This document shows, one piece after another, positions 39,001 through 42,000 of a DNA stretch of 64,000 nucleotides. How positions within the stretch are numbered: the stretch's first letter is position 1; every line of letters begins with the position of its first letter. The DNA comes from Roseibacillus sp. (GTDB taxonomy: Bacteria; Verrucomicrobiota; Verrucomicrobiia; Verrucomicrobiales; Akkermansiaceae). A program made the position numbers. The stretch spans positions 288,001 to 352,000 of the forward strand of contig CBDEUM010000030.1 in assembly GCA_965242925.1 (NCBI GenBank). Direction: 5' to 3'.

Positions 39001-42000
39001 CGCAACCTACCCCAGCGCGAGCGCTTTGCAGCTTCGTGGTCCGTGGTCGGCGGGCTTATTGAACCTCCTCGACAACGGTGGAGCGCGCATTGTTCTGCAA
39101 CGGGCCGACGATCTCGAGAGTCCTCCCGGCGAGACGCCGTTCTATCCTGCGCTCTTTGAGGACACGGTAAATTACAACGACGTTGCTCCCTGGCCCACCG
39201 GACCGGATGGCACGGGCCCTTCCCTGAGCCGAATCAGCGCGGTGGTCTACGGTGACGATCCGGCTAACTGGCAATCGGGCACAGCAAATCCCGGCGTTCA
39301 TGCGATTGGCACGATCACCTATGAACTATGGGCTGCTCATCACGGATTGGGAGTCGGCCCCGAGGCCGCGCCCCAGGCGGACTTCGAACTTGATGGCGTG
39401 ATCAACCTCCTGGAGTTCGCCCTCGATAGCGATCCCACCGCGATCGATCCGGAGAAACTTCCCCCTGCCACTACGCAGACTCTGAACGTGGGTGGGCAGC
39501 TTGACGATTATCTCGCCCTCACCTACCGGAGACGACGCGACGCGCCTAACCTCGTGTACACCGTGCAGGTGAGTCACGATTTGGTGAACTGGTCGATTCC
39601 GACACAACAAGTCGGCAATCCCGTCGATAATGGTGATGGGACGGACTCGATCACGGTTCGCGACACGCAGCCCATCGGGGCTAGCGGGCGCCGCTTCATG
39701 CGCTTGTTGGTGGACCTTCAAGAGCCATAGAGTGTCACGATCTGATTCCGGAACAGCAAAGGCGAAGAGGTTGATTCGTCCGAGAAGTCCAAATTATAAC
39801 CTCACCCTGCCCCGATCCGCGTGGCGTAGCCTCTCCCCGCTTGCCCCCTGCGCCTGGGGCAGGTAGGTATCAGGAATGAAGAAAGCCCTGACTGCCCTGT
39901 GCTTCGCCTCAATGGGAACGCTCCTGTTTGGTCTTGAGAAGCCCGCCGCTCCAGCTCCTGTTGGCCCAGCGATTACCAAAGTAGATATACGCCCCTCAAA
40001 AATCGAATTCAGCCGTTGGAACACACCGGTTGAGCTGACATCTCTCGAAGACGCGAAGAAACATTTTGAAGGAGATGCTCTGGATCAGCTGAAGGCCAAA
40101 GTCGACTTTGGAAATCAGATTGTGTTGGTTTTTTCCTGGCGTGGTTCCGGGCAAGACAATTTGGACTATGTCGTGATGGAATCCTTCCCAGAGCAGATTG
40201 CCTTCTCCTACCGTCCGGGCCGAACCAGGGATTTGCGTCCGCATGTGCACGTGTTTGCCCTTCGTGCCAACGTGAAATGGCGCGCGGGAGGAAAATAGAT
40301 TCCCGCTTAGAAAATCATGCCGTCAAAGGCACATGGCGGCGCCTTGACGAAAAAGCGATTTCCTTTCAGTATAAAATGAAGATTTTCCAATCCTTAGTGA
40401 TCGGCTTTCTCGCCACCGCTATTGCCTTTGCCGAAGATAGCCCTGTAGCCGCAAAAGGAACTGAGTTGCGTGAGGTTGTTGTTAGTCATACTGACGAAAA
40501 GGGCATCCTCCAACTCTATCACATGAAGGAAGACGGTTCCGATAGCCGTCAGCTTACTCGTTCCGAGCGCAGCTGCCGCATGCCCGCGTGCTCTCCTGAC
40601 GGAAAGAAGCTCGTATACGTGAAACAGGTTGGCCATGGCCAATCTCTCTGGATTTCCCATATTGAAGGGAAGACAAAACGCGTCCTTATCGATGGAGGGA
40701 TGAACATAGTCCCTTCGTGGTTGCCTGATTCCCAGCATATTGTCTGGATGAAGGCTCAGTCAGGGCAAGACCCATCGGGGAAGAGCCAGATCCACATTAT
40801 GAACACGGAGACGGGCGAATCAAGAAGGCTGTTCGCCGACCCTGAGCAACTGTTGTTCAGCAATTCTATGCCGGTTGTCTCGCCCAAAGGAGATCTGATC
40901 GCATTCGTCTCCAACCGAAGCGGCGCTATGCGTATCTGGCTCAGCGCTCTGGATGGAAGCAATGCGAGGCTGGCTTCCCCTCCAGAGGTTGAGTTCCACG
41001 AAACGATCGACGCCGCCATCGAACAAAAAGTTCCCGTCTGGTCTCCCGATGGCAAGTGGATTGCGCATTGGGAGGGTGTTGAGATGGTCCATATGAGCAA
41101 GTTTACTGGCGTTCCAAACCCGCAACGAGATCGCTTGATCTCGAAGACCTTTCACGTCTGGGTGGTGGACAGCGATGGAGAGAACCGAAGAAAAATTGGA
41201 CGCGGAGACGATCCCACTTGGTCTCCCGATGGATTCGTAACGCGGGCTTTTCCTGATCAAAGAAGGGGCGGCCCTAAGGTTATGATTGAAACTGAATCTG
41301 GGGAAAAGGAATTACCGATAGTGCCTCGCGAACGAAACTGGGGTCGCTTCACTTGGTTGCCAGAGCGAGCCCAAAAATCTAAAAGTGAACAAGGCGGCAC
41401 TGACAAACCAGCTGCTGATCCTGATAAGAAGCCCAACAAGACGTAGCAGGGCAAGCCGTACTAGCGCTTCTCCTGCCTCGCTCCCTCCGGTCGGGCAGAC
41501 CCCCACTCACCCCGGCCTGCCGGCCCATGGCGGCGCCTTGACGAAAAAGCGATTTCCTTTCAGTTGGCCTCAAGGTGTGGTGGCACGAGAACGGCCAGAA
41601 GCAGGCCGAAGTAACCTACAAAGACGGCGAGCTACGAGGGGGGCTCGTTTTTCTTTGCCCGCGCCTTCTTGCGTTCTTGCCGCCTCTTCAAGCGCTCCTC
41701 CTTGCTCAGCTTCAGTTCGGTCGGGTCGGACTGGGGAGTAGTCGATGATCCCTTTGAAGCGGAAGCGACCATCTCCTTGAGCCAGCGTTTGTGCAACTGG
41801 ACCAGTTCGCGGGCCTTGGCCGGTTGGGTGCTCGCAAGGTCATTTGCTTCGGAGGGATCTTTCGAGAGATCGTAGAGTTCGAACTTCTCCTTGAAGCCGT
41901 GCGCTTTCCAGGGTCCCTGGCGAACCGCCCACTCACCCTTGGGCAGACCGCTGTTGAAGTAGAGTTCGGAGTGGTGGCTCGGGGCACCGTCGATGAGCAG

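Follow-up and report, generated by a model that had tools for sequence, protein, structure and literature searches.

More than 100 exported proteins of the marine bacterium Roseibacillus sp. were found to end in or near one and the same uncatalogued beta-sandwich domain (the tail domain), which probably holds them at the cell surface or routes them. We put the probability of our leading interpretation, that the tail is a Verrucomicrobiota-wide, CBM37-like module for non-covalent surface retention, at about 0.4. To our knowledge, the way in which Verrucomicrobiota bring adhesive proteins and polysaccharide degraders to the outside of the cell is for the most part unsettled. The domain is real, and full-text literature searches, with subscription papers mostly beyond their reach, yielded no description of it, including in the passages retrieved from PMC4960237, PMC12834350, PMC9415379, and PMC9957290. 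Compared with the initial annotation, the present analysis adds the division into two tail classes (T1 and T2, defined below), a control with a profile of external origin, tandem arrays, and co-occurrence tests that failed.

The window analyzed here is a stretch of 64,000 nucleotides, in which segment 39428-39730 had been singled out as an unrecognized C-terminal domain. This segment is indeed the C-terminal end of a 1,954-aa ORF on the forward strand and carries the motifs claimed for it. From the N to the C terminus, the protein consists of an N-domain shared with other proteins, cadherin-like repeats (recognized by eye), four lamin-tail domains, a CHB_HEX_C/Fn3_assoc region, a CotH kinase domain, and the tail; the window holds two further T1 tails (Table 1).

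Table 1. Features of the window, with window coordinates, strand, and basis of assignment
Feature	Position	Strand	Basis
Gene of the 1,954-aa exported protein	33866..39730	+	ORF call and Pfam
Predicted Sec-type signal peptide of this protein, ~23 aa	33866..33934	+	Hydropathy rule and sequence
N-terminal passenger domain of this protein, 72-84% identical with domains of three T2-tailed proteins of the same genome	33932..34465	+	blastp
AIPEPS motif inside this protein, directly after the N-terminal passenger domain, without a membrane helix	34466..34483	+	
CotH kinase domain, residues 706-1010 of this protein	35981..36895	+	PF08757, E 2.3e-14
Helix, TSP3-like acidic (putative Ca-binding-type) loop, and helix, upstream of the sandwich	39317..39436	+	Alignment and model; Ca binding from motif
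Six-stranded truncated fibronectin-III-like sandwich as modeled, strands A, B, C, C'/D, E, F, no G	39467..39718	+	Model (pLDDT 93), fold search, conservation
S-x-D-L-x-x-W motif in the sandwich	39572-39592	+	
F-x-R-L motif in the sandwich	39695-39706	+	
Second T1 tail, end of ORF 48947-52156	51878..52153	+	HMM, E 1e-7
Third T1 tail, end of a 1,663-aa protein whose gene extends past the window	62494..62916	-	HMM, E 1.4e-23; alignment
PEP-CTERM gene, the next one downstream of the gene with the third T1 tail, passengers dissimilar	61376..62236	-	PF07589

The absence of a Pfam or NCBIfam model, reported by the initial annotation, was reproduced with the last 137 aa of the 1,954-aa protein, which remained unmatched at E ≤1. 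When 13 other T1 tails were scanned against the same collections, one TSP3_bac repeat exceeded its cut-off, and it covered the Ca loop outside the sandwich. Three of the 13 gave sub-cut-off matches to DUF3999 (E 6e-4 to 0.05), and kinship with this family was rejected, the matches being confined to the S-x-D-L-x-x-W region. Curated profiles of FnIII families did not match the tails, PDB sequence searches returned nothing below E 0.3 (the best sequence match, sidekick-2, was recorded at E 1.8), Foldseek with the tail model gave no match at E ≤1e-3, and the matches in the ESM Atlas were unnamed Verrucomicrobiota clusters only.

The model of the window tail, computed from a 21-row alignment, bore out the six-stranded all-beta sandwich proposed earlier (pLDDT 93), with a helix, an acidic loop, and another helix preceding the six strands. 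Among the 50 rows of a wide fold search, it matched FnIII domains of cytokine receptors as well as Ig C1 domains, at best with Z 7.5 (rmsd 2.7, 79 residues aligned), a level that the search tool rates as common. In the Ig/FnIII-type matches, by the usual strand naming of these folds, the aligned ranges of the tail model reach strand F only, and strand G is therefore regarded as absent. T1 proteins mostly stop 3-8 residues past the F-strand motif. The tail profile also cross-matched a discoidin domain and canonical bacterial FnIII repeats, and the latter run on into strand G after Y/F-x-R-V. Thus, as modeled, the domain is a truncated fibronectin-III derivative without strand G. It shares with fibronectin type III (PF00041) the strand order, the C- and F-strand motifs, the profile cross-matches, and the Ig/FnIII fold, but differs from it in ending after strand F, in having S-x-D-L in place of S-x-D-G, in its lack of a Pfam match, and in a strong terminal bias.

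In T1 tails, the most strongly conserved residues are S (90%), D (84%), L (90%), W (92%), F (71%), and R (86%); the mean column identity of the domain is 23%. The net charge of the domain is -4 and the median for its last 16 residues is +2; in the alignment, T2 copies have mostly lost the terminal Arg and show F-F-V-V-E-E instead. The acidic loop is TSP3-like (PF18884 matched one member), and a loose acidic-loop motif was present in 51 of 82 T1 versus 3 of 41 T2 tails.

To quantify the domain in this genome, 38,864 six-frame ORFs were searched. A single-sequence search gave 20 matches at E <1e-3, and an iterated HMM gave 131 matches in 130 ORFs at E <0.01, the best reversed decoy scoring E 0.17; one protein has two copies and the other 129 have one. 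As many as 123 of the 131 matches were terminal or near-terminal: 82 lay ≤15 aa from the stop (T1), and 41 were penultimate, about 165 aa before the stop, and followed by a conserved choice-of-anchor J domain (T2). The remaining eight were internal or truncated. The description of the domain as fixed to the extreme C terminus therefore holds for only about two-thirds of the copies, since the T2 class had mostly been missed, and tandem copies occur in other genomes. T1 and T2 proteins account for 127,068 of 1,354,267 called residues, or about 9% of coding capacity, and for 77 of the 332 genes of ≥800 aa in our own gene calls.

An external HMM, built from 234 domains of other organisms only and run on windows of 110 aa, reached ≥10 bits in 87 of 3,114 terminal windows versus 2 of 1,148 internal and no reversed windows, and it recovered 79 of the 82 T1 tails. 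Because a profile from other organisms reproduces the terminal bias, this bias is real and no artifact of seeding. Rounds 3-6 of the iteration had drifted into the J domain, and the homology of the T2 copies was therefore retested with a terminal-only HMM (which gave weak scores), with hhalign, and with the external HMM. The last of these matched 32 of 41 T2 copies at ≥10 bits and hhalign gave 94% (E 1.4e-7), indicating that the T2 copy is a divergent homologue of the T1 copy.

The conserved domain of ~165 aa behind the T2 copies had 44 matches in the genome, confined to the T2 context. Four of five J domains exceeded the cut-off of NF038128 (30 bits) with 33, 47.3, 59.7, and 39.5 bits, the fifth reaching 29, and a model (pLDDT 83) showed a MAM/cleaved-adhesin jelly roll matching the Kgp K1 adhesin domain (Z 14.0, rmsd 2.8, 148 residues aligned). 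The last domain of T2 proteins thus belongs to the choice-of-anchor J/cleaved adhesin/MAM group, domains that occur together with T9SS CTDs. Unlike the usual choice-of-anchor J domain, it is itself the C terminus, always stands behind the truncated FnIII domain, and is followed by no anchor.

The claim that the domain is phylum-wide and C-terminal elsewhere was confirmed. It was matched in 89 of 201 phylum genomes, Akkermansia included, although in 8 of the 89 by one or two weak matches, and in 29 other genomes the best match lay ≤5 aa from the stop in 27 cases, at a contig end in one, and at the N terminus in one (L073). With one tail as query, all 23 named loci found were Verrucomicrobiota, among them Akkermansia, Opitutaceae, Terrimicrobiaceae, and Luteolibacter; 21 of the matches were terminal and two (L093 and L098) preceded an FGE domain. 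The full T2 tail was also present in two genomes of other classes (G004 and G008), and 6 of 16 genomes of genus g2 were tail-positive. In Akkermansia, the domain was seen on a GH18 protein and on sulfatases. With FnIII cross-matches counted in, the profile matched 15,574 clusters formed at 50% identity, which is thus an upper bound. Among the best 150 database matches, in a ranking that favors multicopy proteins, 144 had the full domain and 111 had at least two copies, often head to tail at a spacing of ~77 aa; arrays reached 8-9 copies, and the last copy was terminal in 124 of the 144.

The passengers comprise CotH/LTD giants, sulfatases, GH18, sialidase-like, lyase, lectin, and repeat proteins. 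They had been called otherwise unrelated, which does not hold for all of them: clustering of 78 T1 passengers at 50% coverage gave 45 groups, the largest with 18, 10, and 7 members. T1 tails occur on 24 of 27 CotH and 40 of 48 LTD proteins, and several exceptions are frameshift-split or contig-end genes. The reported enrichment in signal peptides was not confirmed either: the hydropathy rule called 49 of 78 T1 and 27 of 40 T2 proteins, yet also 37% of the remaining genes with at least 300 aa (641 of 1,740). The rule being unspecific, these counts are suggestive only; by eye, many T1 and T2 N termini without a call resemble signal peptides. There was no enrichment of lipoboxes (2 of 117 tailed proteins versus 28 of 1,755 others), and the hydropathy of an internal 19-residue stretch exceeded 1.7 in one tailed protein only (a borderline case); tailed proteins are thus without another visible anchor. 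None of 13 prepilin-motif matches, 12 of which look real, adjoins a T1 gene, so that a pilin linkage of the tail is unsupported in this genome; in a set of 38 other loci (3-4 kb each), one prepilin was seen.

We then examined the relation of the tail to PEP-CTERM. None of 30 PEP-CTERM candidates carries the tail, as previously stated; this exclusion is weak evidence, because two C-terminal features rarely co-occur and because PEP proteins are short and single-domain (median, 228 aa). The tail domain is not PEP-CTERM: the PEP motif, the membrane helix, and the basic tail are all missing from its soluble, all-beta model, and its proteins do not overlap with the 30 candidates. PEP-CTERM/exosortase (PF07589, PF09721) resembles it in occupying the same slot behind common passengers, in the frequent adjacency of the genes, and in the presence of an exosortase. 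After one dubious candidate was dropped, 17 of 29 PEP passengers recurred in tailed proteins, with a T2 protein as best match in 16 of the 17 (56-95% identity); the tailed proteins sharing a PEP passenger were 7 T1 (28-61% identity) and 19 T2. Thus, the reported alternation of the two endings behind one passenger does exist, but it involves mostly the T2 tail.

The genes are also neighbors. A tailed gene adjoins 15 of the 29 PEP genes versus 5.9% of other genes, and a PEP gene lies directly upstream of 9 of 42 T2 genes and 2 of 82 T1 genes. In one PEP/tailed pair, a 633-base stretch of DNA shows 94.6% identity, and in G004, a genome of another class, a PEP gene lies upstream of a J-tailed gene with passengers 69% identical. 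In genus g2 and Akkermansia, 16 of 23 non-identical loci had a PEP gene immediately upstream, mostly without detectable passenger similarity; four duplicates had been removed, and the loci represent few orthologue groups and were in part hand-selected. No PEP gene was found within 6 kb at 17 named non-Akkermansia loci. Amuc_2165 is listed in the last supplementary table of PMC4960237, which, judged from the main text and not from the table heading, is the PEP-CTERM list. Amuc_2164 is presumably the orthologue of the tailed GH18 protein of Akkermansia (L087); it does not appear in one supplement of PMC4960237, and the portions of PMC12834350 and PMC9415379 available gave no localization for it.

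Candidate secretion machines were searched in this genome, whose completeness of 89.9% bears on calls of absence. PorV was not found, with a positive control in Bacteroides; SprA was not found, and its positive control also gave no match. Por_Secre_tail had no match at E ≤1 on 19 tails and only one sub-cut-off internal match genome-wide, with no control genome positive, and a T9SS CTD entry was absent among the best 50 rows of a wide fold search with the tail model. Five secretins, including that of a T2SS cluster (GspD, GspK, GspG), one exosortase, and two C25 peptidases were present. Co-occurrence was assessed in 200 genomes, 88 tail-positive and 112 tail-negative, in which kin are not independent. 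GspK was found in 78 of the 88 versus 63 of the 112, Amuc_1099 in 56 versus 75, and a C25 peptidase in 28 versus 12; either GspK or Amuc_1099 was present in all 88, but in 94 of the 112 as well. GspK had no match in genus g2, three closed genomes of which carry tails and two PilQ-like secretins; this speaks against the canonical T2SS as an obligate route. The Amuc_1099 system was likewise rejected as the route, since 32 of the 88 lack it, the whole of family f5 (17 genomes) among them, although divergence could hide it, and so was the C25 peptidase as a universal PorU-like sortase, which occurs in only those 28 genomes and is often itself a tailed passenger. Thus, none of the three candidate machines tracks the tail across the 200 genomes, and no dedicated translocon, sortase, or processing enzyme for the tail was found.

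These results bear on the initial designation of the tail as a T9SS-CTD-like sorting domain. A role in localization is plausible in view of the terminal position, the soluble exported passengers, and the swap with PEP-CTERM behind one passenger. The likeness to T9SS was overstated, because one-third of the copies are penultimate, tandem arrays exist, the ancestry is FnIII, PorV, SprA, and Por_Secre_tail are missing, and no machine tracks the tail; the tail domain is not a T9SS CTD. According to PMC4804311 and PMC7468200, the T9SS CTD is a seven-stranded signal of ~80 aa that is cleaved by PorU, and it resembles the tail as a beta-sandwich of that size ending tens to more than 100 passengers that are exported by Sec, in the case of the tail presumably. 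The tail model has six strands, compared with the seven of a sandwich like the RgpB CTD, no T9SS profile matches it, and no C25 sortase is co-distributed with it.

A module for non-covalent anchoring accounts for the pattern no less well than an export signal does. In PMC4081043, CBM37 of Ruminococcus albus is described as attaching enzymes to cell-wall carbohydrate, in 51-102 copies that are C-terminal, sometimes tandem, and replace a dockerin in orthologues. Like the tail, it is a lineage-restricted small module with 50-100+ copies at the C termini of diverse exported proteins that substitutes for another anchor in paralogues or orthologues. It is an analogue by pattern, from a Gram-positive host and with a demonstrated ligand, whereas the tail is phylum-wide and often accompanied by a Ca-type loop or a J domain.

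With the position, fold, distribution, and alternation of the tail observed as above, we infer its part in export, retention, and ligand binding as follows. Sec would carry large soluble proteins over the inner membrane, as their putative signal peptides suggest, and one of the secretin machines would probably take them through the outer membrane. The truncated FnIII domain of ~80 aa, often stiffened by the acidic Ca-type loop, would remain on the protein and use its last strand, rich in Arg, together with the conserved E/S/D/F/R residues to bind a common surface ligand, most likely LPS or an acidic exopolysaccharide; T2 proteins would have a J domain of lectin/adhesin fold added behind it. 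New surface proteins may arise by swaps between tail and PEP-CTERM behind one passenger, the pairs seen showing the two states and not the direction. We favor retention because the tail replaces a known anchor, is repeated in tandem, ends in a basic strand, and is found on proteins otherwise devoid of a visible anchor; the head-to-tail arrays would suit binding by avidity. Several findings argue against it: the conserved residues fall on the C and F strands common to FnIII domains and may serve structure alone, most T2 copies lack the terminal Arg, the prevalence of single copies here fits a signal equally, and the copies of L073, L093, and L098 are N-terminal or internal. The tailed proteins could also be periplasmic instead of exposed at the surface.

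Another explanation, which we consider possible though doubtful, is that the tail is an export tag, a folded domain read in the periplasm by a secretin machine (the T2SS or the PilQ-like Amuc_1098-1102 system) or a shuttle, with a strand possibly added at the position of the missing strand G to license passage through the outer membrane. The near-complete coverage of large extracellular-type proteins, the stop shortly after the last motif, the single copies and the T2SS cluster of this genome, the GspK counts, and the presence of GspK or Amuc_1099 in every tail-positive genome are consistent with such a tag, and the T9SS CTD is likewise a small Ig-like sandwich whose last strand can swap (PMC4804311). 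A tag of this kind is hard to reconcile with the failure of any single machine to track the tail, with penultimate, internal, and tandem copies, which are unlike single terminal signals, and with PEP-CTERM proteins that have no tail. A purely structural role, as a cap or spacer, is rather unlikely; the domain would then be a stable terminal module of FnIII origin, spread by shuffling among Ca-dependent extracellular proteins and without any ligand or receptor. The cross-matches to FnIII repeats and discoidin, the common fold arrangement (Z ≤7.5), the low conservation, and the internal copies all suit a cap, but it would leave unexplained the swap with PEP-CTERM and a terminal bias that is kept across classes and on very different passenger folds.

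We regard as more unlikely still that the domain serves as an address label for a sorting route, so far undescribed and common to the phylum, in which the incomplete FnIII fold would be completed by a strand of a receptor (a shuttle, a secretin part, or a surface protein) and T1, T2, and PEP-CTERM would send one passenger to different surface sites. Least probable is docking of the tail, in the manner of cohesin and dockerin, onto a neighboring PEP-CTERM protein or onto other tails to form surface complexes. The upstream PEP genes at the g2/Akkermansia loci and beside T2 genes here, and the edge that, from the fold match, would be open at the missing strand G, point in this direction; docking fails because ~125 tails face 29 PEP proteins, and PEP genes are rare upstream of T1 genes and absent around the non-Akkermansia loci. 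Moreover, the PEP passengers are diverse and the tail is common to all, and the pairs share the passenger, not the tail.

In practical terms, one profile is enough to pick out, throughout the phylum, proteins that may be secreted or lie at the surface, and the tails on GH18 and sulfatases of Akkermansia make deletion and grafting tests feasible in a cultured gut commensal. Should the tail prove to be an anchor or an export tag, it would also lend itself to display; if it marks a sorting route, it would address ~125 proteins here, with 9% of coding capacity, and mucin-active enzymes in Akkermansia. In the window, the AIPEPS motif inside the 1,954-aa protein is possibly the relic of a PEP-CTERM gene that was fused to the gene downstream.

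The 43203-43571 ORF of the window ended in a strand resembling the last strand of the tail (the truncated fibronectin-III-like domain at or near the end of many proteins of this genome), and it scored below 8 bits with the external profile, an HMM from 234 domains of other organisms. Endings like its own were also carried by C38:94349-96292 and by the C22 gingipain-family peptidase (see table). It and the 43474-43797 ORF may be the pieces of one split gene bearing a divergent tail of a third type. The coiled-coil sequence was alike in both ORFs.

A frameshift apparently cuts many tailed genes of the genome into two, which may reflect assembly error or phase variation.

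At L112 (C29:109800-113500), a PEP-CTERM gene and a neighboring T2 gene, whose tail is penultimate before a choice-of-anchor J domain, shared 94.6% DNA identity over 633 bases, indicating either a recent duplication or gene conversion. By eye, FG-GAP/UnbV-like genes often flank such PEP/T2 cassettes. The proteins of C14:92594-94453 and C12:27774-29498, which adjoin PEP genes, have passengers 65 to 70% identical to those of the PEP proteins and terminate in another, distinct conserved ending. About half of the T2 proteins contain D-x-D-x-D-G repeats (3 to 14 per protein), a possible Ca-stiffened stalk.

Of the five secretin loci of this genome, one was a T2SS, one a cluster of type IV pilus-like genes, and one a secretin standing alone. 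The other two were clusters resembling Amuc_1098 of the Akkermansia PilQ-like system, and one of these also matched Amuc_1099.

Features in the window, elsewhere in the genome (contigs C3 to C38) and in two other Verrucomicrobiota (L093, L098)
Feature	Location	Strand	Remark
Short ORF	window 43203-43571	-	overlaps 43474-43797 ORF, other frame
Short ORF	window 43474-43797	-	overlaps 43203-43571 ORF, other frame
Lipoprotein-like gene, BspA-type leucine-rich repeats	window 33051-33650	+	by eye; upstream of tailed gene 33866-39730 (1,954 aa)
Secretin locus	C30:129588-138237
Secretin locus	C13:61000-78000
Secretin locus	C38:14800-21750
Secretin locus	C3:2960-7100
Secretin locus	C24:9119-10612
Gingipain-family (C25) peptidase	C22:167395-170538		tail-like strand at its end
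Gingipain-family (C25) peptidase	C12:57116-58207
Apparently frameshift-split tailed gene	C22:39975-44325		example
Apparently frameshift-split tailed gene	C12:79882-83531		example
Apparently frameshift-split tailed gene	C14:512195-518390		example
Apparently frameshift-split tailed gene	C29:450963-456639		example
Apparently frameshift-split tailed gene	C30:146512-151021		example
Locus with internal tail domain	L093:4618-7182		directly N-terminal to FGE-sulfatase-modifying domain
Locus with internal tail domain	L098:5788-7239		directly N-terminal to FGE-sulfatase-modifying domain
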